From a virus, in IMG/VR virus record IMGVR_UViG_3300034200_001896, positions 1 to 64,000 of that record: DNA of 64,000 nt; one strand, written 5' to 3'. This document shows positions 35,934 through 51,436 of this stretch, piece after piece. Every line of letters starts with the position of its first letter. Position 1 is the first letter of the stretch. Both the position numbers and the translations under genes were made by a program. The notes beneath the pieces are model-generated. The model searched no databases and was not told where the DNA came from. It worked only from the letters and a program-made list of their open reading frames with translations.

Positions 35934-35993
35934 TGTCACCGCAGAGTGACGCCGAAAAAAACCGGTTGCGCTTCCCGGTGGTTGTGGCATAAT
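35934..35993 (+). promoter_or_regulatory. Operator-promoter module 3
   Basis: TGTCAC-CGCAGA-GTGACG, 14 nt, TTGCGC-16-CATAAT. Confidence 0.75.
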
Positions 35994-36048
35994 AGGTTCA
36001 TCAATCGCAGTTAACCACCCACGCAGTATAGCACAAACGAGGTTGCAC

Positions 36049-37098: not shown

Positions 37099-37109
37099 TG
37101 CATGACATT

Positions 37110-37140
37110 GCGGGGGAGGTTGAATGACTCCCCCGCTTTT
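37110..37140 (+). terminator. Intrinsic terminator
   Basis: GCGGGGGAG...CTCCCCCGC-TTTT. Confidence 0.8.
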
Positions 37141-37171
37141 GTTGTATGTCTTTGCCTAGCCGCCCAAATAT

Positions 37172-37474
37172 ATGACAAAACTGGAACAAGAGTATAGAAG
37201 CAATATTGGCAAGTTATTTGTTCACCGTGATAGACAATGGACAGGAGCAGCTAAAGGTTGGGTGTTGGTAGGTGATTTGGTAATGATTGAGAAGGTGGAG
37301 AAACAGGGAGGATGGTATCACTATCACATGGAGATTATCAAACGCAATCTAGATAATGTGCCAGATATAAAAGATTCTAGAAATAAGCGTATTGTATCTT
37401 GCCGAGAGTTTCACAGGCACAGCGAATCCCCCCTGTCACTCTTGGGTGACACGGAAAACAAGGAGGTTGCATAA
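37172..37474 (+). CDS. Hypothetical protein, YxxxIGKLF subfamily
   Basis: YRSNIGKLF; 3' end contains operator module 4. Confidence 0.7.
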   Translation: MTKLEQEYRSNIGKLFVHRDRQWTGAAKGWVLVGDLVMIEKVEKQGGWYHYHMEIIKRNLDNVPDIKDSRNKRIVSCREFHRHSESPLSLLGDTENKEVA

Positions 37475-37494
37475 ATCTCAGGATGGGGTACTAT
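37434..37494 (+). promoter_or_regulatory. Operator-promoter module 4
   Basis: TGTCAC-TCTTGG-GTGACA, 15 nt, TTGCAT-16-TACTAT. Confidence 0.8.
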
Positions 37495-37524
37495 GTATCC
37501 ATAACTCGCTGATGGAGAAGCACA

Positions 37525-38721
37525 ATGGCTAACGAGACTGAGCAGTTCGACCTTGACCGTTATATCTACAATCTCTTGCAGAACGAGCCGTTCTTTGCAG
37601 AGATTTCCCGCCATGTTGAGAAACGTTCCAGCACCGCAATCCCTACCGCTGGTGTGCGTATCACCAAGGAGGGACAGTTTGAAATGATGTATAACCCTGC
37701 CTTCTTCCAGAAGCTTACCCGTGAGCAGCGGGCAGGTGTTATCAAGCATGAGTTTTATCATTTGGTTTTCGGTCACGTCACTGACCGTATGCCTGATGGT
37801 AAGATGTCTAAGAAGTGGAATATTGCAACTGACCTTGCAATCAATAGTCATATCAAGGATGAACTGCCCTCAATGGCTTGCATCCCCGGTGTTGGTCCCT
37901 TCAAGGATTTGCCGTTGTTTGAATCGTCTGAGTGGTATTATAACAATCTGCCAAAGCAAGACGAAAAGAGCGGCAAGGGATTGGGTGAGGGTTCTCCTGA
38001 TGGTGGTGGTGAGGGTGAATCTGATTCCTTCGACGACCATTCCCAGTGGGGTGAGAACGCAGAGAACCTTGACCCCGGATTGCGTGAACTCGCCAAGGAA
38101 CGTCTGCGTGAAATGATGCGAAGCGCAGCAGAGGAGGCCAACAAATCCTCTAATGGTTGGGGTTCTGTCACTCATAATATCCGCAAGGAGATTATGGACC
38201 GTATCTCTGGCAAGATTGATTGGCGTGCGGTGCTGCGCTACTTCATCAAGACCTCTCAGCGTTCTGCAAAGACTAGCACGGTTAAGCGTATCAACAAGCG
38301 TTACGCTTACATCCATCCCGGTCAGAAGGTGCAGCGTCATGCTAAGATTGCCATTAGCATTGACCAGAGCGGTTCTGTCTCGGATGAAATGCTGGAAGCT
38401 TTCTTCTCTGAACTAAACAACCTTGCAAAGATTGCCACGTTTACTGTGGTACCCTTTGATACGGAGGTTGATGATAACCTTGTTTATGTTTGGAAGAAGG
38501 GAATGTCTCGCAGGAAGGAACGTGTTAAGTATGGCGGAACTGACTTTGACGCTCCAACCAAGTATGTTAATGATAAGGGGTTCGATGGACATATAGTGCT
38601 TACAGATATGCAGGCACCAAAGCCTATCACTAGCAAGTGCCAGCGTATGTGGATGACTACTAAAGATTGTATGTCGTCGGCCCCTTTTAAGACTCATGAG
38701 CGGGTAATCCCTGTTGAATAA
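37525..38721 (+). CDS. DUF2201-type metallopeptidase plus VWA domain protein (MoxR partner)
   Basis: IPTAGV, KHEFYH, NIATDLAIN, DQSGS (MIDAS), GGTDF, LTD. Confidence 0.9.
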   Translation: MANETEQFDLDRYIYNLLQNEPFFAEISRHVEKRSSTAIPTAGVRITKEGQFEMMYNPAFFQKLTREQRAGVIKHEFYHLVFGHVTDRMPDGKMSKKWNIATDLAINSHIKDELPSMACIPGVGPFKDLPLFESSEWYYNNLPKQDEKSGKGLGEGSPDGGGEGESDSFDDHSQWGENAENLDPGLRELAKERLREMMRSAAEEANKSSNGWGSVTHNIRKEIMDRISGKIDWRAVLRYFIKTSQRSAKTSTVKRINKRYAYIHPGQKVQRHAKIAISIDQSGSVSDEMLEAFFSELNNLAKIATFTVVPFDTEVDDNLVYVWKKGMSRRKERVKYGGTDFDAPTKYVNDKGFDGHIVLTDMQAPKPITSKCQRMWMTTKDCMSSAPFKTHERVIPVE

Positions 38722-38732
38722 ATAAACACATA

Positions 38733-38770
38733 TGGTGTGGGCAGTAAGGCAGACGATACTGCCCACACCA
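38733..38770. terminator. 14-bp-stem hairpin, possibly bidirectional terminator
   Basis: TGGTGTGGGCAGTA-N10-TACTGCCCACACCA. Confidence 0.75.
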
Positions 38771-38820
38771 ATGATGTTTGATATAGCATTGCGGGGGCTG
38801 GGAATGGCAATAAACCTCCC

Positions 38821-38943
38821 AGTATATCAAAATCCAGCCGCCCCGTCAAGCACTATTTTCTACCTGTCACCTACGGGTGACGTAACGTGGGGGTGACACC
38901 CTCTAAAAAACCGGTTGCAAAAAGGCGAGAGCAGAAGTATTAT
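38821..38943. promoter_or_regulatory. Double operator with divergent promoters (module 5)
   Basis: Minus: TTGACG-17-TATACT (38849-38821); sites 38865-82 and 38881-98; plus: TTGCAA-17-TATTAT. Confidence 0.85.
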
Positions 38944-38949
38944 CTACCT

Positions 38950-39297
38950 ATGACCCCCACCGAAAAGCAATACGCAAAGAATGTTGGCAAGTTGTTTATC
39001 GCTAAGGACAGGCGATACAATACGGATAAGCAAAAGTTTGAGCATACTCATACTCTTTGTTTTGTCTATGGTATGTACCGTACTGGTTACAATGGTAAGA
39101 ATGGTGCATATGGTTACAAGATACAATCTCTTTTTCCTAAACTAGAACAAGATTGGAGAATGGATTATACTATAAGGTGTAAAGAGTTTAATGAAGGTGG
39201 TAGACGTGGCCACTGGCACAGGATGGATTATCTCCCCGCTACTCCTGAGAATACGGAACTGATTGGAAAAGTTATTGACGTGCCAGAAAATGAATGA
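38950..39297 (+). CDS. Hypothetical protein, IGKLF subfamily; predicted leaderless
   Basis: YAKNVGKLF; ATG 6 nt after the -10 box. Confidence 0.7.
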   Translation: MTPTEKQYAKNVGKLFIAKDRRYNTDKQKFEHTHTLCFVYGMYRTGYNGKNGAYGYKIQSLFPKLEQDWRMDYTIRCKEFNEGGRRGHWHRMDYLPATPENTELIGKVIDVPENE

Positions 39298-39309
39298 TAA
39301 GATGATTAT

Positions 39310-39645
39310 ATGAGTCAGACAGAAAAGCGATACAACAAACACATAGGCAAACTGTTTTGGTGTGGTGAACGAACATATAATACAGATGTAAGCGGATATC
39401 ATCATTACTTTACGCTTGTAATGATTAGGGGAATAGAAAAAGAAAAATACAACAAGAAATACCAATATATTGTAGATGTAATATCTTCCCCATATAAACA
39501 TAACGAAGGAGAAACTTACAAAGTTGGATGTGCGTATTTCTGTAATGATTTGTTGGAAGTTATTACCCAGTATGGAAATGGATACTTCCCAGCGACTACA
39601 GGAGATTTAGAAAAAGATGTTGCCCAAATCCAGAAAGCGTGTTAA
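39310..39645 (+). CDS. Hypothetical protein, IGKLF subfamily; predicted leaderless
   Basis: YNKHIGKLF; TTGACG-17-TAAGAT-6-ATG. Confidence 0.7.
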   Translation: MSQTEKRYNKHIGKLFWCGERTYNTDVSGYHHYFTLVMIRGIEKEKYNKKYQYIVDVISSPYKHNEGETYKVGCAYFCNDLLEVITQYGNGYFPATTGDLEKDVAQIQKAC

Positions 39646-39892
39646 GATGGGTTGCAAGCACAAGTATCAAGTCCGCATCGGATACGAGGAAGCGGAAAGC
39701 TTTGCAGGAGATATGTATCAGCTAGAAGTGACAGAGGTTTATGAATGTTTGGACTGTAAGAAAATCGTCAAGGTCTAGAAAAAAGATATTGACCTCCAGC
39801 ACAAAATAGAATAAGATGGTTTCTGAAGTTAAGCGAAGTGATTGCAGTTAACCCTAACCAGAAGTTCACTCTCACTAAGGACAATAACTATT

Positions 39893-40183
39893 ATGGCTAC
39901 CATTTCTAACTCTGACGTTCTCTCCGCTGTGCAGACTTTCGTTTCCTCTAACAACCGTCCCTGCCCTGCCCATTTCCTGACTGAGAAGTTTGGTGATGAT
40001 GTGCTGGATGTGATTGACGAGTTGAAGGCTTCGGGTGTTCTGCTTGGTCTGCGTGGTCGCAACGGTGGTCTTGCCACTCCTGATTCCGAGATTGTGGCTA
40101 AGCGTTCTGCCAAGTCTAAGACTGTAAGCAATACTAACGAGCCTGCCTCCGAGGCTGCCGAGACTGTGGCTGCCGTTGGGTAA
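39893..40183 (+). CDS. Small winged-helix protein with Rrf2-like wing motif
   Basis: IDELKASGVLLGLRGRNGGL; RBS AAGGA; own promoter and downstream hairpin 40203-40242. Confidence 0.55.
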   Translation: MATISNSDVLSAVQTFVSSNNRPCPAHFLTEKFGDDVLDVIDELKASGVLLGLRGRNGGLATPDSEIVAKRSAKSKTVSNTNEPASEAAETVAAVG

Positions 40184-40427
40184 GCTGATGTAGATGTGGT
40201 AAAGGCAGGGAGGCAGAAACTTTAACTCTGTCCTCCCTGCCTGTTGTTTCTAACATAAGGATTAACCAAAATGTCACTGTGGCGTTGTTCAGTTTGTCAT
40301 AAGGCAGGTCTTGAAGATGATTTTGTTTTCGTTCCTGTTGATGATACTCATGAGGATATATACTGTTTTGATTGTGCTCCTCCAGAGGCAATGAAACAGC
40401 ATTGGCCTGTCGATGAGGAGGAAGACA

Positions 40428-40712
40428 ATGACAGCGACTGAGAGGAATTATAGAAAGTATCTTGGCAAGCTTTATTGGTCTACTAACAGAGGTTCGCTTG
40501 TGACTATCGAAGCAGTTAAACGTTCACAATACGGTAACCGTTGGAAATTTGATATATTCTATATGAATGCCAACGTTGGACAGCAGACTAGAAAGATTGA
40601 TTGTGTAAGAATAGCCAACCTAATTAAAGAAGGTACTTGGATTCCAGCAGACCAGTATATCAAAAACCCGCCTCCCGCTGTCAAGCTGAAAGTAGCAGAA
40701 AAAAGTTGTTGA
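40428..40712 (+). CDS. Hypothetical protein, IGKLF subfamily
   Basis: YRKYLGKLY; RBS GAGGAGG. Confidence 0.7.
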   Translation: MTATERNYRKYLGKLYWSTNRGSLVTIEAVKRSQYGNRWKFDIFYMNANVGQQTRKIDCVRIANLIKEGTWIPADQYIKNPPPAVKLKVAEKSC

Positions 40713-40745
40713 CTTCCTCCACCACTCTGGTATTATCTTCCCATC

Positions 40746-41423
40746 ATGAGCACTTGGAAATACAACCGAATGTATGCAGCACAGGCACGTACTCCTGTTG
40801 AGAAGGTTACGGATGCTACCATCCCCACTCGCATTGATGCTATTCTGAATAACGGTATCTGTAACGATTGGGAAAAGAACTTCTGTACTTCCATTAAGGA
40901 AAGCTTTACCAAGTATCAGGGTCTGACTAAGGGGCAATATGATACGTTTGTGAAGGTTGAACAGCGTTACGATTCTGCTGCTGTTACGGCACGTAATAAC
41001 TGGAATGCCGCTTGGGATGCCAGCAAGAAGGCGAAGTGGGATAAGATGATTGAGTATTATTCCAAGACACCTTACTACAAGGGAGCGACGGATAAGGTTA
41101 GGGTTAATCCTAACTATATCCCCAGCGAAAAGGAATACGCTGCAATCTGCGAAAACAAGTATGCTGTCAAGATGCTTGCCCAGCAGAATATTCCTCCCAA
41201 GTATAAGTGTGGTGAGCTGACTGTGTATAAGGAATATGGTAACTATCGTTTGGCAACTGTTGTTGAAGTTGGCAACGTTGATAGTTGGGTTAAGGGTAGT
41301 CGCACTTACAAGATTAACATCGTGGGTGAAGCTGCCATTAAACTAGTTGAGGAGCGGGATATGTTGTATTACCGTGACTCGATTATCCCCAAGTTGACTA
41401 AAAAGGATGAAGTACCTTTTTAG
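40746..41423 (+). CDS. Hypothetical protein with C-terminal SH3-like domain and acidic EVPF tail
   Basis: WEKNFCTSI...LTKGQ; PKYKCGEL...; ends DEVPF. Confidence 0.7.
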   Translation: MSTWKYNRMYAAQARTPVEKVTDATIPTRIDAILNNGICNDWEKNFCTSIKESFTKYQGLTKGQYDTFVKVEQRYDSAAVTARNNWNAAWDASKKAKWDKMIEYYSKTPYYKGATDKVRVNPNYIPSEKEYAAICENKYAVKMLAQQNIPPKYKCGELTVYKEYGNYRLATVVEVGNVDSWVKGSRTYKINIVGEAAIKLVEERDMLYYRDSIIPKLTKKDEVPF

Positions 41424-41473
41424 TTCACACTGAAAGCCCACTGTGATACTATATACACAGTGCGGCGGCTAGC

Positions 41474-41632
41474 ATGGAAAACAAAACAATGAACAAAGAT
41501 ATCAAGACCCGAGACTATTTCATGTTGCTTATTATCAACGGTGTTACCAAGAGCGGCACCCATAAGGATAAGAAGCGGGAACAAAATAAAAAAGAGTGCA
41601 GAAAAAAGGTTGACACTCGCAGGGAAGATTGA
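41474..41632 (+). CDS. 52-aa basic protein (not in ORF track)
   Basis: MENKTMNKDIKTRDYF...SGTHKDKKREQNKKECRKK; promoter TTCACA-17-TACTAT upstream. Confidence 0.55.
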   Translation: MENKTMNKDIKTRDYFMLLIINGVTKSGTHKDKKREQNKKECRKKVDTRRED

Positions 41633-41736
41633 TAGAATAGATGGGCAGCAGGAAGCAAACAAAAAAGAATAGCAGAAGCCTAAAAGAAAGTGCTAGACAA
41701 GTAGGAAGAAGTGATGTAGAATAGATGATGTAAAAC

Positions 41737-41821
41737 GGACTCGACGGTTGGACTGACCACTCGCTTATAACGAGTTGCACTAGATTGGTGTTGGGATAGG
41801 GTTCGATTCCCTACGGGTCCA
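41737..41821 (+). tRNA. tRNA with UAU (Ile) anticodon and long variable arm, atypical
   Basis: Acceptor GGACTCG/CGGGTCC, anticodon arm ACTCG-CTTATAA-CGAGT, V-arm GCACTA-GAT-TGGTGT, T-arm TAGGG-TTCGATT-CCCTA. Confidence 0.8.
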
Positions 41822-41873
41822 TAGAAGAAAGTAGTTGACAAGTGAATAGCAGTTGATGTATAATAGATGTGTC

Positions 41874-41957
41874 GCCCCCATGGTGGAATCGGTAGACACA
41901 ACAGACTTAAAATCTGTCGTCCGCAAGGGCATCCCCGTTCGACTCGGGGTGGGGGCA
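41874..41957 (+). tRNA. tRNA-Leu(UAA)
   Basis: GCCCCCA/TGGGGGC, ACAGA-CTTAAAA-TCTGT, long V-arm, TTCGACT. Confidence 0.95.
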
Positions 41958-41974
41958 TGATGTAAAGTTGTAAA

Positions 41975-42047
41975 GGGTCTGTAACTCAATGGTTAGAGTA
42001 CTCGCCTTTTAAGCGATAAGTTGTCGGTTCGAGTCCGACCAGACCCA
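41975..42047 (+). tRNA. tRNA-Lys(UUU)
   Basis: GGGTCTG/CAGACCC, anticodon loop CTTTTAA, TTCGAGT. Confidence 0.95.
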
Positions 42048-42049
42048 CT

Positions 42050-42433
42050 ATGAATAAACGTAAAACTCCAATAATTGGAGAATATGAAATTAGAAATTGC
42101 AGCAAACATGGTGAGGTTCGCTATGTGAAAGAATCTAGTGGCTACTGGCGTTGTACGAAATGCAGAAATGCAAATGTTAGCAATCGTAGAGACAAATTGA
42201 AGTTAATGGCAATTGAATATAAAGGCGGGGAATGTCAGAAATGCGGATATAATAAATGTAATAGAGCATTAGCATTTCATCATCTAGACCCAACACAAAA
42301 AGATTTTGGTTTAGCAAAAAGCGGATTAACAAGAAGTTGGGAAAAGATGAAAGAAGAACTTGACAAGTGCATATTGGTATGTCATAATTGTCACGCAGAA
42401 ATACATGATGAAGAACATATAAGAAGTTATTAG
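42050..42433 (+). mobile_element. HNH homing endonuclease in the tRNA cluster
   Basis: CQKCG...AFHHLDP...ELDKCILVCHNCHAEIH. Confidence 0.88.
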
Positions 42434-42434
42434 T

Positions 42435-42508
42435 AGGGGCATAGTTTAATTGGCAAAACCTCTGACTTTGAATCAGATGACGTGAAGGTTCGATTCCTTC
42501 TGCCCCTT
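42435..42508 (+). tRNA. tRNA-Gln(UUG)
   Basis: AGGGGCA/TGCCCCT, TCTGA-CTTTGAA-TCAGA. Confidence 0.93.
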
Positions 42509-42521
42509 TGTTGTGTTGTAT

Positions 42522-42595
42522 TCCCAAGTAGCTCAGTTGGTAGAAGCGCCGAACTGTTAATTCGGATGTCGTTGGTTCGAATCCAACCTTGGGAG
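42522..42595 (+). tRNA. tRNA-Asn(GUU)
   Basis: TCCCAAG/CTTGGGA, CCGAA-CTGTTAA-TTCGG. Confidence 0.95.
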
Positions 42596-42611
42596 CAGGT
42601 AGTATGTAGTC

Positions 42612-42684
42612 GGCCCTATCATCTAGAGGTCTAGGATACCGCCCTTTCAAGGCGATTACGCGAGTTCGAATCTCGCTAGGGTCA
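42612..42684 (+). tRNA. tRNA-Glu(UUC)
   Basis: GGCCCTA/TAGGGTC, anticodon loop CTTTCAA. Confidence 0.93.
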
Positions 42685-42685
42685 T

Positions 42686-42898
42686 ATGGAAATCAAAGAA
42701 GGTGACTTGGTTTGGAATAAATTTAATGGCTATGGGACGGTACTAAAGATTAGGATTGAATATTGCGCCGTCTATTGGTATGCACCGACAAACCCAACAG
42801 AGAACACAAACTATCTTAAACCAGATTATCATGTAAAGTATGTAAGACAGTGGAAACGTAATGTTGAAGATAAATGCAGCGTTAGCTCAATTGGATAG
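42686..42898 (+). CDS. SH3/KOW-like paralog
   Basis: IKEGDLV...GTV...VYW. Confidence 0.7.
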   Translation: MEIKEGDLVWNKFNGYGTVLKIRIEYCAVYWYAPTNPTENTNYLKPDYHVKYVRQWKRNVEDKCSVSSIG

Positions 42899-42901
42899 AG
42901 C
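42876..42901 (+). pseudogene. 5' remnant of a canonical tRNA (Arg-like)
   Basis: GCAGCGT-TA-GCTCAATTGGATAGAGC = acceptor 5' strand plus complete D-arm, then cut off by the HNH gene. Confidence 0.6.
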
Positions 42902-43244
42902 CGTGATGCCTTAGTCTATGGCAATTAGAACAAAGCAATATGCACTTATCAAGTTCTTGTTTTAACCTTTCATCGCTAACCATCTTTGCTCTATCCCATG
43001 CCATATCTTTCTTTGATGGGTCTAAGTGATGAAAATCATAAACAGAGAAATGATATGTCTGTTTGCAATCGTGACATTTATCGCCTTTATCTTTTATGGC
43101 TTTTATTTTTCTCTCTCTCCAACGGTTAATACAATAACTACTAAAACATTTCTTACATCTTGACATAAATCTACCTTTAGTTCCAGCTTTCTTGTAACCG
43201 TTTAATTCATTAATTTCTACTTTACAATCTGTGCAAACTGACAT
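42882..43244 (-). mobile_element. HNH homing endonuclease, paralog of 42050-42433
   Basis: CHDC...DFHHLDP...ELDKCILLCSNCHRLRH; RBS AGGAG. Confidence 0.88.
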
Positions 43245-43258
43245 ATAGTATCTCCTAT

Positions 43259-43327
43259 GCCCCGTGTAGCGGACCTACTAGTTGGTCTTCTAAACCGACA
43301 AAAACCGTTCGACTCGGTTACGGGGTG
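43259..43327 (+). tRNA. tRNA-Arg(UCU) with shortened D-arm, atypical
   Basis: GCCCCGT/ACGGGGT, TTGGT-CTTCTAA-ACCGA, AACCG-TTCGACT-CGGTT; 69 nt. Confidence 0.7.
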
Positions 43328-43368
43328 CTATAGTAAGTAGTTGGGTAAAACAGAAAAGTCTACCTAAA

Positions 43369-43572
43369 ATGACAACAATAAATGTTGGTGATTTGCTGCG
43401 TACTAATAGTTGGTTTGGTGTTGTGATGCGTATAGATGAAGGAAATAATTACGAAGAAACTGCATATATGGTTCACTGGTTCTTCCCTGACAATAGAAAT
43501 CCTATTAGTATGATAAACGGTTATAATGCATTAAAGTATAGAATTAATGTATTGACAATACTTGGAAAGTAG
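43369..43572 (+). CDS. SH3/KOW-like paralog
   Basis: VGDLL...GVV...YMVHW; 3' end encodes TTGACA-17-TATAAT for tRNA-Tyr. Confidence 0.75.
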   Translation: MTTINVGDLLRTNSWFGVVMRIDEGNNYEETAYMVHWFFPDNRNPISMINGYNALKYRINVLTILGK

Positions 43573-43605
43573 TGTATAATATTTTCCCTCACGCTGTGCT
43601 GTTAT

Positions 43606-43688
43606 GGGGATGTTGACAGTAAGGTTACTGACGTGGACTGTAAATCCGCTGCCATTAGGCCAACTAGGTTCATGTCCTAGCATCCCCA
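43606..43688 (+). tRNA. tRNA-Tyr(GUA), atypical D-arm and T-loop
   Basis: GGGGATG/CATCCCC, GTGGA-CTGTAAA-TCCGC, V-arm, T-loop TTCATGT. Confidence 0.8.
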
Positions 43689-43733
43689 TCTTTTTTTCTT
43701 GACTTTCCCTCCAGCTTCGGTATACTAGCCGCC

Positions 43734-44848
43734 ATGTTAAAGACAAGAAAGCTGAATCTAGGTGACTTGGTTGCGGTAACAGAGCATAAAGACAATATCA
43801 CTATTGGAATGATTGTAGAATTTGACGATGCTTATACTACCTACAAGATTGAGTGGTGCAACGGTAAACATATCTGGGCTAAGGCATCGTGGATAACTAC
43901 CCAACAGTACCGTAACATTTTCCTTGACTGGAAGGCACAACTGTTATAGGATACTTCCCGTGAACGACCCTTACATCGGCAAGTTGTTCCTCATGGATTG
44001 GCATCCTCCATCGTTCGGTGTTAACCCGACTCAGCGTATATATCTTTTCATGGTTGTCGGCAAGGGTAAAGAACATCATACCAAGCAAGGTTATATTTGT
44101 GAGTCCCTGACTTCGGGTAGGCAATATATCTACAACGAATACGAGATTATCTCAGGACTTGTGCAATACAAGCAATGGAAGGAGCAAAATAATGTTTGAT
44201 ATCCGCGAAGGTGATAGTTTGTTGGGTTATAGTATTGCTACCAAGGATTATATTGTTGGCATCGTTACTGATATTAAGCTTGACGCAATTGCCCGTAAGC
44301 AGTATAATGTTCATTGGGCTGATGCACAAGTTGGATGGTTGGACCATAACACCGCTGTACGTTTGCGTGAGAAATATCTTGACTTCCGCAACAAGTAGGG
44401 TATAGTGTTTATCATGGATATCAAAATCGGTGACAGTGTTGCGTTCATTGGCAGTGTTGCATCCACTGGTAAATCTTTCAGCTACGTTGGCGTGGTGTCA
44501 AAGATATCTAACCATAACCCTCGTTATTGTGTTTCTTGGAATGACGGTACGGAAACTTACGAAGATAGTCCTGAGATTGCCATTTTCCGAAAACAATACC
44601 TTGACTTCCTCAACAAGTAGGGTATAGTAACTATCATGGATATCAAAGTCGGTGACAGTGTAGCATTTAAGCCTAGGAAAACGTCTAACGAATACGATTT
44701 GGGAATCGTTGTAAATATAATTCCAAACAAAAATTACTGTGTAAAGATAATATGGAATGATGTTGCATTTCCCTCTAGTGAGACTGTTGAGTTAATGGCG
44801 GACGCTCTAGAGTTCCGTCAGATTTATCTTGACCTTCTCGCAAAGTAG
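43734..44848 (+). CDS. Five SH3/KOW-like paralogs (43734-43949, 43960-44199, 44192-44398, 44414-44620, 44636-44848)
   Basis: GD(L/S)V...G(M/I/V)V...W motif; four of the five start 7 nt after a -10 box. Confidence 0.8.
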
Positions 44849-44866
44849 GGTATAGTAGTAATCATG
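44375..44866 (+). repeat. Three copies of a ~42-bp gene-junction/promoter repeat (44375, 44597, 44825)
   Basis: TAYCTTGACYT...CAA(C)AAGTAGGGTATAGT.....ATCATG. Confidence 0.85.
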
Positions 44867-45205
44867 AAAGCGACCGATTGCGTTGAGTGCGGAGAGCAGT
44901 TCAATCTTTATTCCCCTGAGAAGCGCAGGACAGGCGGTAAAGCTAATACTTGTCCCCTGTGTAGTGAGGAGACTGCCGTTAAATATGCGGGAGTCTCAGC
45001 AGGTGAAGGCAAGATGGGTAGTGTGCAGGTATTGAAGTTTTCCTCTAATGCTGACCGTGCAGCTTATCTTTCATTCTGGAAAGCTACAAGCGGTATGAAT
45101 ACAGGCAAGAACTGTCAGATGCAGTTTCGTGCCAAGGAACCAAACGTAAAGTTTAAGACTGTCGCAACCTTTACAGGCAACGTAAATCACAAGGGGAAGG
45201 CATAA
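44864..45205 (+). CDS. Zn-finger hypothetical protein; predicted leaderless
   Basis: CVECG...CPLC. Confidence 0.7.
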   Translation: MKATDCVECGEQFNLYSPEKRRTGGKANTCPLCSEETAVKYAGVSAGEGKMGSVQVLKFSSNADRAAYLSFWKATSGMNTGKNCQMQFRAKEPNVKFKTVATFTGNVNHKGKA

Positions 45206-45373
45206 TGTCTGACGTACTTTCGTCTAAGTATCTTACCCGTGATAATCGTCCAACCATTCGTCAACTGTTTGAGAAACTTGGAATCAACAAAGGCGAGCAT
45301 GATGAAAATGTTAGGGCAGCACTTGAAGAACTTATTACGTTGAGAAATCACAAGGGAAGGAGTTGATAATACA

Positions 45374-45604
45374 ATGCTTATTGAAAATAAGAAAAATCTG
45401 GATATCAAAACCTTAGATTCTATCAACAGCGGCGCTGCTTTTTGTTTTTATGAAAGTCACTTGGGCAAAGGTATATATATGAAAACTGCTCTACCGCCCA
45501 ATGGTAAGAAGTACGCTATAGTATCTCTTGAAGATGGAGAGATTGAGGAATATGATAGGTCGGTGAGAGTGACCGTCCTTAATGCAAAGGTAGTTATAGA
45601 CTAA
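45374..45604 (+). CDS. Hypothetical protein
   Basis: RBS AGGAG; 76 aa. Confidence 0.6.
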   Translation: MLIENKKNLDIKTLDSINSGAAFCFYESHLGKGIYMKTALPPNGKKYAIVSLEDGEIEEYDRSVRVTVLNAKVVID

Positions 45605-46197
45605 CCAATATATCTATCTTGCTTTGATATATTGTCCTTTGCCCAAAGAGGTTGGAGATTATCTAAACTCCAGCACTTAAGAAAGTTCTCGTCCTCTATA
45701 GAATCAAACGGCAACCAAGATTGAGGTATGATGTGGTCAATATGCCATTCACCGTGGTTATCCCATGTCATACCTTCTTTAAACTTGCTTTCAAGATGCT
45801 TACGCAAATCATCAGGGGTATAACCAAGACGTTCAAATATCTTCTTTGAAGGCCAACCATTCTTTAGGGCACGCTTGATAGAAACAAAAAGGTTCTTATA
45901 CCAACCTCTAACTTCATATGACTTCTTCCAGTGTTTCCTCTGTATCTCTTTATAGCGTTCTGGATTCTGTTCCTTCCAGCGTTTTGTATTCTCTCTTTGA
46001 CGTTCCTTATTACCTTTTCTCCATTGACGGGAACGCTGATTAATGGTATCTTTGTTTTGTAGAGAGTAGTCCTTATCTTTAGAATGTTTGCAGGAACGAC
46101 ATATACTTTGATGCCCGTCTTTCTTTGTGGCATCCTTATTGAAATCAGCAAGTGACTTTTCTTCTTGACATACACGGCAAAGTTTGGTAGTATCCAT
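45601..46197 (-). mobile_element. HNH homing endonuclease
   Basis: CRVC..EK...CRSC; GMTWDNHGEWHIDHIIP...NLQPLWAKDNISK; start 6 nt after minus-strand ACTACTTA. Confidence 0.9.
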
Positions 46198-46252
46198 ATA
46201 CAGTAAGTAGTCAATCGGATAAGAATAGACCAAAGAAAGTGAGGAGATAATA

Positions 46253-46345
46253 ATGGGACATCCAAAGAAAAACCGCCCACGCAAGGGACGCAGGAAGATT
46301 GGTAGCAAGAAGCGTAAGGCTCAGAGCAATAACCGAAAGAAGTAA
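46253..46345 (+). CDS. 30-aa very basic peptide (not in ORF track)
   Basis: MGHPKKNRPRKGRRKIGSKKRKAQSNNRKK; strong RBS GAGGAG. Confidence 0.7.
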   Translation: MGHPKKNRPRKGRRKIGSKKRKAQSNNRKK

Positions 46346-46348
46346 ACC

Positions 46349-46522
46349 ATGAAAAGACTTAAGCGTGGCGACCTAGCTTGGATGATTTTTGATGGTAAGC
46401 AAAGCATGGTAATGATTACGGAGTGCAGATACAAGACTGATGTTTATCTTTGTGCCCCTGTTGCCGTAGCGCATCATGCATCATGGGTGTCAGGCTTTAG
46501 GTTGGAGCGTATAGTACCGTAA
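46349..46522 (+). CDS. SH3/KOW-like paralog (57 aa, not in ORF track)
   Basis: LKRGDLAW...VMI...Y. Confidence 0.6.
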   Translation: MKRLKRGDLAWMIFDGKQSMVMITECRYKTDVYLCAPVAVAHHASWVSGFRLERIVP

Positions 46523-46713
46523 GGATTGCCTCCCCCTGCCACTACCGTAGTAGGGTGGGGGGAGGTCGTGAAAAAAACAAAATTTCCTGTGCAGCCAGCC
46601 GCCGTTAAGGCGGTATTCTAGTATATATTAGTACATATATATATGTATGGGGTAGTGGCGGCTAGCTCTTGACAGGGTACTACTGTAGTGGTAGAGTAGG
46701 AGGGGGCTACAGA

Positions 46714-47049
46714 ATGTATTATTCTTTTAGACAAAACAACAGCGGCGGTAGATTTCAAGGTCCAGCAAACACTGTATGGGTAGAAGCTGATAGCGCAGAG
46801 GAAGCTAACAATATATTTACAACTCTGGATAACTGTTACTTCGACCCTGACTTTCAGTTTGACTGTGGATGCTGCCGTGCTCGTTGGTATGAGGCAGACG
46901 AGCAGGCTGCTAAATCACACTACGATATGTTGCGGGAGATAGATAGAGATATTAATAGTGAATGGAAATCAATGAGTGATTTGATTGGCAGAAACAAGAT
47001 TCCACAGCATATGGTAAGGCACAAGAATGGCACCGTCCAGTTTATCTAA
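46714..47049 (+). CDS. Conserved phage protein (QNNSGG family)
   Basis: FRQNNSGG...VEADSAEEAN...DCGCCRARW. Confidence 0.75.
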   Translation: MYYSFRQNNSGGRFQGPANTVWVEADSAEEANNIFTTLDNCYFDPDFQFDCGCCRARWYEADEQAAKSHYDMLREIDRDINSEWKSMSDLIGRNKIPQHMVRHKNGTVQFI

Positions 47050-47236
47050 AAACATAGGTAGACTATGCATCGATGCTCTCAAAGGCACCATGTATATGAT
47101 TGTCGGTGTTGAATGTGAAATTAATTCATCGCCTAAATATATACTATACAATGTTCAAAGCGGTGTAAGGTTTTCGTTGTATGTAAACGCTCTTGACAAC
47201 CCCAACCTCGTCAAATGGCTGACGCCACCTCGATGA
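47027..47236 (+). CDS. IGKLF-subfamily small protein
   Basis: KNIGRLC...YMIVG...Y. Confidence 0.6.
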   Translation: MAPSSLSKNIGRLCIDALKGTMYMIVGVECEINSSPKYILYNVQSGVRFSLYVNALDNPNLVKWLTPPR

Positions 47237-47336
47237 CACGTCAGAAAAATGACGTGACAGAAGTTTGACATGTCAGAAATTTGACGTTAGCTGCTGTAAA
47301 GAAAGTTTGCTTCCTGTCAAAAATTTGACAGGAAGC
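47209..47336. repeat. Tandem array of six 16-bp palindromes YGTCA-N6-TGACR
   Basis: Units at 47209, 47223, 47239, 47255, 47271, 47315; the last sits inside the inverted repeat GCTTCCTGTCAAA-AA-TTTGACAGGAAGC. Confidence 0.85.
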
Positions 47337-47454
47337 TCCAATCCAATACACTAATAATATCATGGGTTTAGCGTTTCGTCAATGAAAGTCTTTGACCCTT
47401 GTAACCATGCGGAATCATTAGGGAAAGAGAATATTGGCGCGCCGTTTTTCCCCT

Positions 47455-47556
47455 TGTCCACCTATCTTTTTCCACCGTCACCACCATGAGACTGTCACAC
47501 GGATGCGACACCGTGAAAACCGGTTGCTTGCAAGCGTGGCCGTTTCGTGAGAATAT
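47455..47556. promoter_or_regulatory. Double operator-promoter module 6
   Basis: Sites 47476-93 and 47493-510; TTGCAA(47528)-17-GAATAT. Confidence 0.75.
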
Positions 47557-47600
47557 ATGTCCACTTCAAACGACGGACTAACCGAAAGGCAAACGAAACT

Positions 47601-48254
47601 ATGAACCTGAATCTTAAGTGGACCATGGGCAACGCAAAGCTTGTCAAGACCTCCGGTGAGGCTTACCGTGTACTTGGCTTTGGCATCCCTGCCGATATGT
47701 CTTTCGATGGTGGCAATACTTGTCCCGGTGCTAACGCTTGCCGTGGAGTGTGCTACGCTAAGCAGGGACGTTATATCATGGCAGGGGTTAAGAATGCTCG
47801 GATGCATAACTTCAATGCCTCCCGTGATTATGTTTCCTTCGTTGTGTCTGCCATTGCTGACCTGACCCGTTTGACTAAGCGTTATAACGTGGTTCGTTTG
47901 CACGATAGCGGGGACTTCTACTCTCAAGAATATCTCAACGCTTGGAAGGCTATTGCGTTTGCTTTCCCTAACACTATCTTTTATGCTTACACTAAATCTC
48001 TGCACCTTGACATTGAGAGCGATAAGCCTGCTAATCTTCGCATCGTTCAGTCTCTCGGTGGCAAGTATGATGCAAAGCTTAACCTTAATCTCCCTCACTC
48101 CCGTATCTTTTCCACTGACGAGGACCGCATTGCAGCGGGATACATTGACGGTAACGTGAGTGACATTCCGGCAATCGAGGGAGAGATTAATATTGGTTTG
48201 GTTTATCACGGTGTCCGCAAGCTTACGTCTGCACAGAATGAGTTTTTCCGCTAA
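47601..48254 (+). CDS. Phage Gp88-like protein (radical-SAM-like Cys motif)
   Basis: GNAKL, TCPGANACRGVCYA, VRLHDSGDFYS, FYAYTK. Confidence 0.8.
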   Translation: MNLNLKWTMGNAKLVKTSGEAYRVLGFGIPADMSFDGGNTCPGANACRGVCYAKQGRYIMAGVKNARMHNFNASRDYVSFVVSAIADLTRLTKRYNVVRLHDSGDFYSQEYLNAWKAIAFAFPNTIFYAYTKSLHLDIESDKPANLRIVQSLGGKYDAKLNLNLPHSRIFSTDEDRIAAGYIDGNVSDIPAIEGEINIGLVYHGVRKLTSAQNEFFR

Positions 48255-48267
48255 TCATTAACATAAT

Positions 48268-48306
48268 GCCGCTGCCCTAGCGATTGATGCTAGGGTTTGC
48301 GGCGGC
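48268..48306. terminator. GC-rich hairpin
   Basis: GCCGCTGCCCTAGC...GCTAGGG..GCGGCGGC. Confidence 0.65.
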
Positions 48307-48340
48307 TGTAACGTCCCTTTACACCGGAAATATGGCGCGC

Positions 48341-48463
48341 AAAATATTGCCAGCCGCCTGCCTGTCAAGCTCTTTCTGATGGGTGTCACATCCATGCGAC
48401 TGTCACCCGAACGTGACACCTAAAAACCGGAAGCTTGCACGTACGGGGAAGAGCAGCTATATT
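48341..48463. promoter_or_regulatory. Double operator with divergent promoters (module 7)
   Basis: Minus TTGACA at 48368; sites 48384-401 and 48401-418; TTGCAC-17-TATATT-6-ATG 48470. Confidence 0.85.
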
Positions 48464-48469
48464 ATGTGC

Positions 48470-48637
48470 ATGAACGACGAACACATGTGCGAGCGGTGCG
48501 GTGAGGAACCTGCCTCTAATCTTTTGGAGCATACGCTGTATGCGGAAGCGGTTTGCGGATTGTGCCTGAAGGATGAACGGGAGCACCACGAAAATGAAAA
48601 CGTTCTTTACATGGAGGATTATCGGGCAGCGATGTGA
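48470..48637 (+). CDS. Small Zn-finger protein; predicted leaderless
   Basis: CERCG...CGLC. Confidence 0.65.
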   Translation: MNDEHMCERCGEEPASNLLEHTLYAEAVCGLCLKDEREHHENENVLYMEDYRAAM

Positions 48638-48697
48638 AACCTGAAGGCGACAGGTAGAAAAAGGTAGCTTGCAAAAAACCGGAACCCGTGAGATAAT
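48635..48697 (+). promoter_or_regulatory. Operator-promoter module 8
   Basis: TGAAAC-CTGAAG-GCGACA, 16 nt, TTGCAA-17-GATAAT-7-ATG. Confidence 0.75.
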
Positions 48698-48704
48698 AAC
48701 CGCC

Positions 48705-49174
48705 ATGAACGACAACATCCAGTGGACGAACGATGCGACGGCCAATGTGGCAAAGTGGATTGACCGTGACCCTGCCTTCTACAACGTTGCAAAGAATAAT
48801 GCGAAGGGACGGCAGCCGTATCTGAACCTGCGTTCATGGATGAAGGAACTGGGTTTCCATAAGACTCCTGACCAGATTTCTTTTTTTGATTCCACGCTTG
48901 ACATTCGGCAGCTCAATCTTTTCATCAAGGAGCTTTAATCATGGCTGATACCTCTTACAACGGTTGGACGAACTACGAGACTTGGAACGTTGCGCTGTAT
49001 ATCCAGAACGAGGAGCCGCTTTATAGGATTGCCTTGCGGAGTGATGATTATGCTGATTTCCTTAGAGAGTCAGAACATATCCGTGGAGTGAACACTCCTG
49101 ATGGTGTACAATGGGATAGCGGAGAGCTTGATTGGGATGAGCTTGATGATATGATTGTGGAGCTTCGCTCTTGA
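48705..49174 (+). CDS. Two paralogous small proteins of the YNGWTNYETW family (48705-48938, 48941-49174)
   Basis: WTNDATANVAKWI...TPD and YNGWTNYETWNVALYI...TPDG. Confidence 0.75.
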
Positions 49175-49241
49175 TTCATCGTAGCAACGCAATCTTTTTC
49201 ATTCCCTCGCTGTATATTCCTGTTGGGATTATCGCTTATCT

Positions 49242-49448
49242 TTGGAGGATACATTGATTATTAATCTGAACGACTTTCGCAAGCTGCACGGTATTGACAA
49301 TCAAACTGACTTTTGGAATCTGTTGACGGATTGGAGTGAGAGTGCTAGCGTTCCCGCTATGTGCTCTCAGCTGTGTGAGGTTTCCCCTGATGCGAAGTGC
49401 GAGCATGGTGCTCCCAGTATCATTGTGCGTGTGATTGGAGAGAACTGA
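49242..49448 (+). CDS. Small Cys/His protein
   Basis: VPAMCSQLCEVSPDAKCEHGAPSI. Confidence 0.6.
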   Translation: MEDTLIINLNDFRKLHGIDNQTDFWNLLTDWSESASVPAMCSQLCEVSPDAKCEHGAPSIIVRVIGEN

Positions 49449-49546
49449 TATACATTGCCCCGCTGCCCTGTTAATGACAGGGTTTGCCCGGGCTGGATTG
49501 CGCGAGGGACAATATTCAGCGCGGCAATATTTCCCAGCCCCCGGCA

Positions 49547-49747
49547 AGTCAAGTGGAAAGTTCACGGTGTCACCGGCTGGTTACTGTCACCCGAACGTGA
49601 CACCTAAAAAAGAGGTTGCTTGCCAAGTGAGGCAGGGTGTGAGAATATATGTCCCGTTGATGCAGCACGGGTGAGCGGTGAAGGTGAAACCCGGAAGTGA
49701 CACCCTGAAAAAAGAAGCTTGCAGGTTCGAAGGTTCCACGGTATAAT
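49547..49747. promoter_or_regulatory. Operator-promoter modules 9 (double, divergent) and 10
   Basis: Sites 49568-85, 49585-602, then TTGCCA-17-GAATAT; site 49685-702, 16 nt, TTGCAG-17-TATAAT. Confidence 0.85.
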
Positions 49748-49778
49748 AAGCGCAACCCAAACGAAAGGTAACAAAACA

Positions 49779-50078
49779 ATGTCCAAGTCCTCTTCTGTGT
49801 TCGTGGTTGACGGTGGTGATTACTATCAGGATGTGCGTGGTGCTTTTACTTCGCTCGATGCTGCGAAGGATTATGTTCTCTCTGATATTCTTCTGGACGT
49901 GCTGGATGGTGACGAGTATGTGGACACCATGAAGTCGGTTGTTCTTGAGTATCAGGGTGGCGACCTTGTAAACCGGTTTGAGGTTTCCTGTCAGGGCTTT
50001 GACTTCGACGTGTGCAAGGTGACGAACAAGAACAAGGTGTTGGAGTCGCTGGACCTGAAGTGTGAAACCGTGCGGTGA
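49779..50078 (+). CDS. Hypothetical protein
   Basis: RBS GAAAGG; stop codon lies inside operator module 11. Confidence 0.65.
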   Translation: MSKSSSVFVVDGGDYYQDVRGAFTSLDAAKDYVLSDILLDVLDGDEYVDTMKSVVLEYQGGDLVNRFEVSCQGFDFDVCKVTNKNKVLESLDLKCETVR

Positions 50079-50125
50079 CACTCCGCAAGTAGCAGGTTGC
50101 ATCCCGTCCCGTCCTGCTGTATATT
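50063..50125 (+). promoter_or_regulatory. Operator-promoter module 11
   Basis: TGAAAC-CGTGCG-GTGACA, 16 nt, TTGCAT-17-TATATT. Confidence 0.8.
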
Positions 50126-50156
50126 ATCACCACACTAACCGAAAGGCAGAAACAGA

Positions 50157-50895
50157 ATGATTACCCGTCAGCTTGGCATCGTTGTGGAGAATCAGAAGGA
50201 TTGGACGCTGGATGCTCTCCTTAATCAGTCCTGTATGAAGGCAACGCATTGCGTCAATGCCGAAGACCCTCACGGTGAGCCTGCCCGTGTTTGGGCAGAG
50301 GGTGAGGGACACGCAGACAACATTGCCAAGTTTCTTGTTTCGTATGGTTACACCATCATTGACACGGAGGAGGTTTGATTAGTGAATGACAAGCGTATGA
50401 TTTTCTCGCCTTTGACCCATGAACAATGGGGTACGCTTAAGTATTGTCACAAGTGCGGGAAACAGGAACGCTTGTATTTGCTGGAGGGTGACCTTTGTTT
50501 TGGTTATGTTTTCTGCGCTAAATGTTTCAGCGAACTAGCCCCCGCTATTAGCGCAAGGCTAGACGAACAGATTAGGGATGCAAAGATTGGCATGGTTGTG
50601 TTAGTAGTTTTGGTTTTGCTCACCATTTACTTTAGGGGTTAACATCATGGCTCGCAAGATGAAGCGGATTGACGGTAAGAGTGTTGTGACGGTTCATGCT
50701 TTCGGTGTCACGAAGCACTTCTGGGAGTATTATATCCTTGATAATGCTAAGACTGATTATCGTCTGGCGTTGGTGGAAGGATTTGAGCAGGAGATGGGTG
50801 ACATTAGCATGAGTGAGATTAAGCCTTATCTCCTGTCATTCACTCATGATGTGTCTGAAATTGCTCCTGCTCCCGGTTGGGAATGGATTGACTAA
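50157..50895 (+). CDS. Three small ORFs (50157-50378; 50382-50642 Zn-finger plus TM; 50647-50895 DUF2958-like)
   Basis: CHKC..CAKC plus TM helix; LVEGFEQEMGDISMSEI. Confidence 0.65.
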
Positions 50896-50939
50896 GCTGT
50901 GCCGTTTCGGGTGCTGTCCTGCCCGAAATTCGGCGCGCA

Positions 50940-51062
50940 GCTTTATTCCCAGCCCCCGGTTTGTCAAGAAGAAAGCGCAGGGTGTCACACGAAAGTTACT
51001 GTCACCCGGATGTGACACCCGGAAACAGGAAGCTTGCACGTAGCAGGAAACAGGCGTATATT
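50940..51062. promoter_or_regulatory. Double operator with divergent promoters (module 12)
   Basis: Minus TTGACA at 50967; sites 50983-51000 and 51000-017; TTGCAC-17-TATATT-6-ATG 51069. Confidence 0.85.
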
Positions 51063-51068
51063 ATGGGC

Positions 51069-51389
51069 ATGAACACGACAAAGCGGACAGCGTGGGTTGT
51101 GGGCAACGGCAAGCGGTTCCTTATTGAAAAGGATACGCTCGGTAAGTTTGATAAGGCTATCTTCTATCAAAGCAAGGAAGGTGCTTACCGTGCGTTGGAT
51201 AGGCTTCACCGCACGCACGCTGATACAAAGCAACACCTTGCGGAAGTTCTCCAGCGTGGTTATGTTGCTGATTATATCCTGAATGAGAGTGAAAGTGGGC
51301 AACGCTTTATTGCACGCTATAGGAAGTACATCCGTTATAATAACCCGAAGGACTGCAATCCAATGAAGGTGACTGTCACGCTTGGGTGA
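51069..51389 (+). CDS. Hypothetical protein; predicted leaderless
   Basis: ATG 6 nt after the -10 box; stop codon lies inside operator 13. Confidence 0.65.
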   Translation: MNTTKRTAWVVGNGKRFLIEKDTLGKFDKAIFYQSKEGAYRALDRLHRTHADTKQHLAEVLQRGYVADYILNESESGQRFIARYRKYIRYNNPKDCNPMKVTVTLG

Positions 51390-51436
51390 CAGGTAGAAAA
51401 AAGGAAGTTGCAGTTTCCCCTAACCTGTGAGACTAT
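51374..51436 (+). promoter_or_regulatory. Operator-promoter module 13
   Basis: TGTCAC-GCTTGG-GTGACA, 16 nt, TTGCAG-17-GACTAT-7-ATG. Confidence 0.85.

Follow-up and report, generated by a model that had tools for sequence, protein, structure and literature searches.

In the sections of Arbiol et al. 2010 (PMC2839356) that describe them, the promoter-early stem-loop (PeSL) cassettes of T4-type phages are repeated intergenic units. They are placed between small accessory genes and join a sigma70-type promoter, which has an A/T-rich stretch upstream, to a stem-loop rich in G/C, whose position relative to the -35 and -10 boxes varies and may fall inside the spacer; genes are replaced at the cassette edges. 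These are the closest described elements to a set of intergenic promoter units in a 64,000-nucleotide stretch of DNA from an uncultured lake phage, hereafter the window, which is the first 64 kb of the 85,763-bp IMG/VR record IMGVR_UViG_3300034200_001896 (completeness estimate ~34%) and holds its large open reading frames (ORFs) on the + strand. In the window, too, a sigma70-type promoter and a G/C-rich stem-loop form a repeated intergenic unit. Whereas PeSL promoters point at the downstream gene, the leftward (minus-strand) promoters described here face the 3' end of the gene upstream, and the forward promoter is separated from the gene-less backward one by a doubled operator. The likeness is one of cassette layout; PeSL elements come from T4-type phages and the present phage has no T4-type assignment. 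On balance, we think it somewhat probable that these units are divergent promoter pairs with one operator for each promoter, in which the leftward member would give a short non-coding RNA that probably acts as a boundary. Promoter/stem-loop cassettes and divergent pairs are already known, and the units constitute no new category. A term search of the article text of PMC4122927 (Comeau et al. 2014, on PeSL elements) showed that the words antisense, bidirectional and opposite are absent from it, and in the literature searched we found no description of backward gene-less promoters in promoter/stem-loop cassettes.

Other known systems share parts of this arrangement. Bacterial symmetrical bidirectional promoters give divergent transcription from one region, often non-coding on one side, as stated in the summaries of Warman et al. 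(bioRxiv 10.1101/2020.01.31.928960) and PMC12825309. This description fits only one pair in the window, at 47325/47382, where the -10 boxes are adjacent (47347-47359); the doubled sites differ in that each promoter has its own -35 and -10 boxes, with the -35 boxes back to back and 66 nt apart. At class I activator-dependent promoters (CRP type) the activator site lies near -61.5, upstream of a weak -35 box, and at P2-type late promoters the dyad is centred at -55 and the activator contacts the alpha subunit of RNA polymerase. By prediction, the rightward promoters of the window resemble class I promoters, with gaps of 14-17 nt from the operator to a TTGC box and a spacer of 17-18 nt. The late-promoter passages of PMC3931495 describe, for P2/P4-type promoters activated by Ogr/Delta, a TGT-N12-ACA dyad upstream of a poor -35 box and, in Smp131, two putative promoters of the divergent pair PP/PO on one palindrome. 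The operator of the window, TGTCAC-N6-GTGACA upstream of a -35 box, fits TGT-N12-ACA, but its centre is at ~-60 rather than -55, two abutting sites replace one, and only in P2 do both divergent promoters drive genes. Pairs of TGT-N12-ACA palindromes, 8-9 bp apart or distant, are also described for PpsR/CrtJ of purple photosynthetic bacteria in the binding-site account of PMC4452267. The resemblance to the paired sites of the window is one of sequence only, and the paired sites here share 1-2 bases, with no 8-9 bp interval between them. PpsR represses from sites that overlap the promoter.

The operator is an 18-bp palindrome that occurs 10 times in the record at no more than one mismatch, always between 35 and 52 kb, as against a single occurrence of a reversed control pattern. 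Thirteen rightward promoters (35081-51391) consist of an operator, a short A-rich stretch, a TTGC box at 14-17 nt (mostly 16) and a -10 box after a further 17-18 nt. Several -10 boxes, both in the window and in the related IMG/VR record G001, are followed 6-7 nt on by ATG (often ATGAAC or ATGACC), and several of the mRNAs may therefore be leaderless. At five promoters the operator is preceded, 16-17 nt upstream, by another and weaker one; we refer to these doubled sites with their flanking promoters as modules 1 to 5. Their first operators start at 38865, 47476, 48384, 49568 and 50983, the second starts 16 nt (module 1) or 17 nt farther right, and the sites of one pair share 1-2 bases (16-17 bp start to start). 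First sites depart from TGTCAC-N6-GTGACA by 1-3 mismatches and second sites by 0-2. By hand count, the operator centre lies ~60.5 nt upstream of the predicted start in modules 1 and 3, with the start taken 7 nt past the -10 box. The operators and the rightward promoters of modules 1 and 3 are as follows.

35237 to 35254: single operator, TGTCACCCGCAGGTGACA, 11 nt right of the -35 box of the leftward promoter at 35225
38865 to 38898: module 1 doubled operator, first site 38865-38882 (1 mismatch), second site 38881-38898 (2 mismatches)
38915 to 38952, + strand: module 1 rightward promoter, TTGCAA 38915-20, TATTAT 38938-43, ATG at 38950 coinciding with the predicted start (leaderless)
Within 47455 to 47510: module 2 operators, first site 47476-47493 (3 mismatches), second site 47493-47510 (1 mismatch)
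48384 to 48418: module 3 doubled operator, first site 48384-48401 (2 mismatches), second site 48401-48418 (perfect)
48435 to 48463, + strand: module 3 rightward promoter, TTGCAC, 17-nt spacer, TATATT
Within 49547 to 49602: module 4 operators, first site 49568-49585, second site 49585-49602
Within 50962 to 51017: module 5 operators, first site 50983-51000, second site 51000-51017

An earlier sequence-only reading of this DNA had reported, at every doubled operator, a minus-strand -35-like box on the left at a distance of exactly 15 nt from the first site, mirroring the 16-nt gap on the right. Direct reading of the sequence gives the same picture in all five modules (TTGACG, TGGACA, TTGACA, TTGACT and TTGACA), and the right-hand gap is 16 nt at the majority of promoters. 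A box at 15 nt accompanies 5/5 doubled operators versus 0/7 single-operator promoters; the single operator at 35237 has its box at 11 nt. The boxes of the five doubled sites and of two further leftward promoters, 35225 and 47382, match TTGACA in 5/6 or 6/6 bases. The chance of a match of at least 5/6 at one fixed position is 0.0058 in this genome, and the five boxes are not independent because the modules are paralogues. A -10 box with A at position 2 and T at position 6, after a spacer of 16-18 nt, is present at 35225, 38849, 47382 and 48368 and absent at 47460, 49552 and 50967. As the earlier reading had it, the -10 box at 38849 is of consensus quality (TTGACG-17-TATACT, with TGn) and the remainder are weaker: that at 48368 is fair (TATTTT), those at 49552, 50967 and 47460 are poor, and 47460 has no clear -10 box. 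It had also noted TTGACA-16-TATACT at 35225-35198 as a convergent leftward promoter; the partner is a rightward promoter (TTGCGG 35115-35120, TATACT 35139-35144), and 53 nt separate the two -10 boxes. The leftward promoter at 47382 is an addition of ours. Its -10 box abuts that of the rightward promoter 47325-47352, and the two predicted starts diverge by ~12 nt, the leftward one lying at ~47347. No ORF follows the leftward promoters of the window, in agreement with the earlier statement that no credible gene lies directly leftward.

35198 to 35225, minus strand: leftward promoter P_L(35225), TTGACA 35225-35220, 16-nt spacer ending in TGn, TATACT 35203-35198, predicted start ~35191
38821 to 38849, minus strand: leftward promoter P_L(38849), TTGACG 38849-38844, 17-nt spacer with TGn, TATACT 38826-38821, predicted start ~38814
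47325 to 47352, + strand: rightward member of the overlapping promoter pair, TTGACA 47325-30, 16-nt spacer, TACACT 47347-52
47354 to 47382, minus strand: leftward member of that pair, P_L(47382), TTGACG 47382-77, 17-nt spacer, TGn, TATTAT 47359-54
47460 to 47455, minus strand: module 2 leftward box, degenerate TGGACA with no usable -10 box (only AATATT at spacer 19)
48341 to 48368, minus strand: leftward promoter P_L(48368), TTGACA 48368-63, 16-nt spacer, TATTTT 48346-41, predicted start ~48334
49552 to 49547, minus strand: module 4 leftward box, TTGACT with a weak -10 box, AATATT, at spacer 15
50967 to 50962, minus strand: module 5 leftward box, TTGACA with no usable -10 box (best TAAAGC at spacer 16)

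The four best minus-strand promoter-like sites between 34.5 and 52.5 kb are those at 35225, 38849, 47382 and 48368, and three of the four minus-strand matches with TGn in the whole 85.8-kb record are among these leftward promoters. In number, minus-strand sites scoring at least 10/12 are at chance level in that interval (4, where shuffles averaged 2.4 and 21% of 200 had at least 4), so that the case rests on position and conservation; the same scan found 18 promoter-like sites on the + strand. By these sequence features, four of the seven leftward copies (35225, 38849, 47382 and 48368) probably fire, whereas those at 47460, 49552 and 50967, which have kept the -35 box and lost the -10 box, are probably weak or dead.

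We searched IMG/VR with operator patterns, which gave 78 loci and 17 loci. G001 and G002 were the only relatives among them; the remainder matched by chance or carried unrelated GTGACA repeats. The same operator system is present in G001, in G002 and in at least seven metagenome contigs; among the matches listed, the metagenome relatives passing a TTG[CA] filter were L138, L152, L162, L167, L191, L201 and L215. L210 also passed the filter and proved unrelated. A megablast of 38000-42000 against the phage collection found no close DNA relative, returning a 40-nt match only.

The sequence-only reading had set conservation in related genomes as a check beforehand, and conservation was found. In 17 doubled modules (the five of the window and those of relatives, including metagenome orthologues) a box matching at least 5/6 stands at 14-16 nt in 16 and at exactly 15 nt in 14, many of these modules being paralogues or orthologues, so that the counts are not independent; the gap sequences between box and outer operator differ among modules. 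In G000, G001 and G002 together, a box at 14-16 nt accompanies 8/9 doubled promoters versus 0/17 single ones; here the site at 9970 in G002 was taken as the orthologue of 38881, and that at 3300 in G001, with half an upstream site and a box, was scored as single. At the orthologous place of the single operator at 35237, G002 has a doubled operator with a 14-nt gap, and its counterpart of P_L(35225) reads TTGACA-18-TATAAT. Both hexamers of P_L(38849) are kept in L138, L162, L201 and G002; the five-sequence alignment of module 1 shows that GTCAAG and AGTATA-TCA are retained while the spacer between them changes in length (17-18 nt) and sequence. The hexamers of P_L(47382) are identical in L152 and L167, and the -10 box of P_L(48368) reads TATTCT in L215 and CAAAAT in L167. 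Across 12 orthologous pairs, substitutions amount to 13/144 in hexamers, 30/210 in spacers and 177/600 in 25-nt flanks, a rate ~3 times lower in hexamers than in flanks, the flanks being compared ungapped, which inflates their divergence.

More distant comparisons were anchored on the gene between modules 2 and 3, which belongs to the gp88 family (Pfam PF17338) and has hundreds of homologues. An alignment of 22 gp88-family homologues retrieved 80 IMG/VR loci, of which 19 (L225-L243, 72-45% identity) were used. The operator at no more than one mismatch occurs in 0/19 of these loci, and a single two-mismatch match occurs in five. The intergenic regions of L225, L226, L227, L229, L230, L231 and L236 nevertheless contain a GC-rich word, (T)GTCAAG, an A-rich stretch and a rightward TTGCA/TTGAC promoter, and read leftward they give TTGACA-17/18-TATAAT-like promoters, mostly with TGn. 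Upstream of gp88 in L227 stands CCAGTATATCA...CCAGCCCCC..TGTCAAG, plainly homologous to the module 1 promoter and free of operators. Over the 19 loci, minus-strand sites scoring at least 10/12 number 53 versus 18.4 expected. With L238 dropped as a duplicate of L237, back-to-back pairs number 15 in 18 loci; shuffles gave 1.15 (maximum 6 of 40) and a displaced control gave 3. A -10 box with TGn accompanies 16/237 minus-strand TTGAC words, versus 0/102, 1/158 and 2/190 for control words; the figure for the + strand is 41/313. Taken together, position and conservation support the view that the leftward boxes behave as sigma70-type promoters. The leftward promoters found in operator-free relatives indicate that the backward promoter is ancestral, being older than the operators and not special to doubled sites.

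The leftward promoters of these relatives are mostly gene-less too. A greedy ORF map was rejected, as its shadow ORFs covered even gp88, and a local ORF test was used instead: 16/19 stereotyped leftward promoters have no minus-strand ORF of more than 45 codons starting within 120 nt, and 5-175 nt to the left of each lies the end of a + strand open frame. A strong GC hairpin usually marks the start of the predicted leftward RNA, 55-120 nt past the upstream stop codon, and in L225, L226, L230, L231 and L236 a gene-less host-type promoter points backwards into the GC hairpin that ends the previous operon. Distant homologues of the 398-amino-acid gene upstream of module 1 (L006-L009) have no comparable downstream module and only plain rightward promoters.

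These comparisons bear on whether the box is a promoter element at all. TGTCAA could be a degenerate half-site, 21 bp or two helical turns from the left half of the first operator, serving to build a larger complex; it matches 5/6 bases of the TGTCAC half-site and its spacing is fixed. We give this idea little credence, as the box persists in relatives that have no operator, it abuts the operator in G001, and the base that varies (T, C, A or G before GTCAA) is the sixth and least constrained position of a -35 box.

The sequence-only reading had further described GC hairpins to the left of the modules, at 38733-70, 48268-306, 49457-510 and 50895-941. All four are confirmed by + strand folds of -24.7 to -28.1 kcal/mol. 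The elements associated with the usable leftward promoters of modules 1 and 3 and with P_L(47382) are listed below.

38733 to 38770: module 1 hairpin, 13 bp, past the stop codon (38721) of the 398-amino-acid gene; minus-strand tail with 6 T in its first 8 bases
38768 to 38820, minus strand: conserved non-coding block, of which ~38768-38811 is nearly unchanged (two scattered changes) in five orthologues; four bases beside the -10 box differ in L138
47309 to 47336: hairpin of P_L(47382), 12 bp, containing a TGTCA-N6-TGACA palindrome; called on the minus strand (47336-47309) by the terminator scan
48268 to 48306: module 3 hairpin, nested, after the gp88-family gene (stop 48254); minus-strand tail ATTATGTT, inner stem followed by TTTG on the + strand

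From the predicted starts at ~38814, 47347 and 48334, these hairpins are reached after about 45-80 nt. The hairpin at 47309-47336 is likely the end of an ~50-nt RNA from P_L(47382), and that at 38733-38770 is likely the end both of the P_L(38849) RNA and of the RNA of the upstream gene; the block 38768-38820 would be the body of the former. The block contains GGGGGCTGGGAATGG, which in the fold is the inverted partner of the C-rich run 38834-38844. The first 8 tail bases of the hairpins reached from 38849, 47382 and 48368 contain 6, 3 and 5 T on the minus strand versus 4, 2 and 2 on the plus strand, and the terminator scan lists 48283-48269 on the minus strand. The hairpins of modules 4 and 5, which have no usable -10 box, have a T-rich tail on neither strand, and terminator-like sites overall are not enriched (12 versus 14.8 expected). 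Two compensatory pair changes distinguish the module 3 hairpin from that of module 4. Both hairpins are followed by TTTG on the + strand, by which they resemble the ends of upstream RNAs as much as targets of leftward RNAs. In the alignment the 38733-70 hairpin is missing from L201 and L162, where another upstream gene stands, indicating that the hairpin goes with the upstream gene and not with the promoter. In both loci (~3880-3960 and ~3280-3360, respectively) homology to the window starts at ACACCAATGATG, the left edge of module 1. This suggests that the upstream gene was replaced at the cassette edge, a single case that would resemble the gene replacement at PeSL edges.

What such RNAs would do is a separate question. 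The earlier proposal that the modules make small or antisense RNAs stands in part: short non-coding RNAs are plausible at 38849, 47382 and 48368, where promoter, hairpin and U-rich tail make up units of 50-100 nt, and the proposal fails to cover the three of five doubled sites that have lost a usable -10 box. If these units were genes for trans-acting small RNAs, 38768-38820 would be a functional RNA body, and it is almost unchanged in five orthologues even where the upstream gene has been replaced. We consider this improbable. Rfam has no family at the leftward units (only tRNAs at 41.7-43.7 kb were found), matches of the four leftward RNAs to other + strand sequence of the record are 11-12-mers no better than chance, the RNA bodies of different modules are unrelated, covariation is scarce, and L201 and L162 do without the terminal hairpin. 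A leftward micro-ORF in module 1 was rejected, as it lacks a ribosome-binding site and what comes after it in L201 and L162 is another sequence. A long-range stem, GGGCTGG...CCAGCCC, is strong in module 1 (z -7.4 on the + strand, -5.2 on the minus strand) and present in module 4; as a common structure it was discarded, being absent (z near 0) in module 2, L152, L167a and L191.

In the divergent-pair reading that we favour, the doubled operator would be the shared centre of two promoters. Rightward, a regulated gene promoter would consist of a short A-tract, a TTGC -35 box and a -10 box, often with ATG at the predicted start; leftward, a host sigma70-type promoter would fire into the non-coding end of the preceding + strand gene. 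The operators of the window clade lie between the leftward -35 box and the A-tract of the forward promoter. With two abutting operators between the -35 boxes, each promoter would have its own site centred ~60 nt upstream of its start, and a single regulator would thereby govern both directions. The RNAs from 38849, 47382 and 48368 would be ~50-100 nt long and non-coding and would end at the hairpin with a U-rich tail. The boundary function is the weakest step: a polymerase bound or firing backwards, together with the antisense RNA, may oppose read-through from the upstream unit, and we propose that the downstream genes would then answer to the operator-bound regulator alone. An activator is somewhat more likely than a repressor as that regulator, because the site lies upstream of the -35 box, the TTGC box is weak and the operator occupies the place where relatives have a distal A-tract.

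A backward promoter might also matter only by binding host polymerase and so tuning the rightward promoter, its RNA being irrelevant. In L226 the -35 boxes are only ~24 nt apart, which, on established footprint sizes, excludes simultaneous binding of two polymerases, and the -10 boxes at 47325/47382 are adjacent. In the doubled modules, however, the -35 boxes are 66 nt apart, which weakens any competition, and of the alternatives considered this sink is the one to which we attach the least probability. It includes as a variant the transcription-driven DNA-entry motor raised by the sequence-only reading, for which we found nothing; leftward firing would run against entry in the gene direction.

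Several observations weigh against regulated divergent pairs with a boundary RNA. Besides the chance-level count in the window, the lack of independence among modules and the inflated flank divergence, three of the five doubled sites have no usable -10 box, and retention of the -35 box where the -10 box is lost suggests a further role of the box. A near-consensus leftward -35 box needs no activator. L191c, an orthologue of module 4, is a doubled module without a box, and at the G001 single operators 4429 and 6652 the box directly abuts the operator, so the fixed 15-nt gap is not universal. The -10 position in G001 reads TAAAAA or TAAAAC, with no T at -7, and is the T-run after a GC-rich element of the + strand. 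The promoter leaves the conserved word GG(G/C)GGCTGG in the spacer unaccounted for, and no cultured relative was found in the phage collection, where gp88-family proteins are at most 34% identical.

Some of these points would fit a relic or by-product, with the leftward boxes having ceased to drive transcription of any consequence in the present phage. GTCAAG would then be kept as the upstream region of the rightward promoter, contacted by the polymerase alpha subunit or a protein, and the apparent -10 box would be the terminator tail of the upstream gene, which is T/A-rich, read from the opposite strand. The G001 sequences agree with this, as do the chance-level count, the order GTCAAG, A-tract and TTGCA -35 box kept in relatives, and the decay of the -10 box with the -35 box retained in modules 2, 4 and 5 and in L152, L167a and L191a-c. 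We nonetheless regard a relic as unlikely, if still deserving of weight. Distant relatives show TGn -10 boxes, spacers of 16-18 nt and near-consensus hexamers far more often than controls do, the hexamers are more conserved than spacers and flanks, and TATACT with TGn is present in all five orthologues of module 1 despite changed neighbouring bases.

Phage genomes with all their genes on one strand are usually taken as one-way transcription maps, yet this lineage keeps backward gene-less promoters under purifying selection. This points to an added layer of control, be it insulation between units, antisense control of preceding genes or polymerase competition. The doubled operator provides a handle for testing, since one site per promoter predicts that mutation of a single site would uncouple the two directions. 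The finding also bears on how promoter/terminator cassettes that serve as recombination points are annotated. More speculatively, and with considerable doubt, gene-less backward host promoters may serve phages generally as a boundary device in early and middle regions, replacing or reinforcing terminators, and may here have been brought under a dedicated regulator by duplication of the operator; one protein would then switch on the gene block to the right and simultaneously an anti-read-through or antisense RNA against the preceding block on the left.

Regarding the regulator itself, the record (~34% of the genome) contains no match to Ogr_Delta (PF04606) at E values up to 10. Pfam searches of 10 early proteins returned no DNA-binding family above cut-off, and PHROGs searches of 10 proteins returned nothing relevant. 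A 56-amino-acid protein with an acidic tail (40271-40441) has a CX2C-X22-CX2C motif that resembles the CX2CX22CX4C given for Ogr. Pfam yields nothing above cut-off for this protein, and from its motif it is a candidate operator-binding protein.

Further features of the region concern its non-coding DNA. A canonical + strand terminator follows the 351-amino-acid ATPase gene at 37110-37144 (GCGGGGGAG, 9-nt loop, CTCCCCCGC, TTTTGTTG), so the phage can use ordinary terminators. Downstream of the 47325 promoter lies a non-coding stretch of ~90 nt (47359-47450, ggtttagcgtttcgtcaatgaaag...gcggaatcatta), conserved with scattered changes in L152, L167 and L191, which may be a leader or a small RNA. A second type of palindrome, (T)GTCA-N6-TGAC(A) with an A/T-rich centre, occurs three times, at 47240-53, 47271-86 and 47315-30; the third of these folds into the 12-bp hairpin and supplies, with its right half, the -35 box of the 47325 rightward promoter. 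The word GGCGGCT(G/A)G or its complement stands in intergenic DNA at 35070-35078, 35169-35177, 37156-37164, 38834-38842, 43725-43733, 46595-46603, 46657-46665 and 48350-48358. Its placement varies between before the -35 box, in the spacer and after the -10 box, and at 43725 it fills the gap between TATACT and the start ATG.

Outside this lineage, many short WNF*/Ga* metagenome contigs among L107-L223 contain a further match to the doubled-operator pattern, the highly repeated element TGTCACATGTCACACC[CT]GTCAC...GTGACAcattttagaccca. It looks like an unrelated, non-phage repeat family, and it dominates the metagenome scan. Variants of TGTCAC-N6-GTGACA occur ~7 times on the minus strand, between ~1098 and 9479, of an unrelated phage (IMG/VR contig L055, 115,788 bp). 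There the palindrome directly follows TTGACAgcttaaagtt and overlaps the -10 region, a repressor-type layout.

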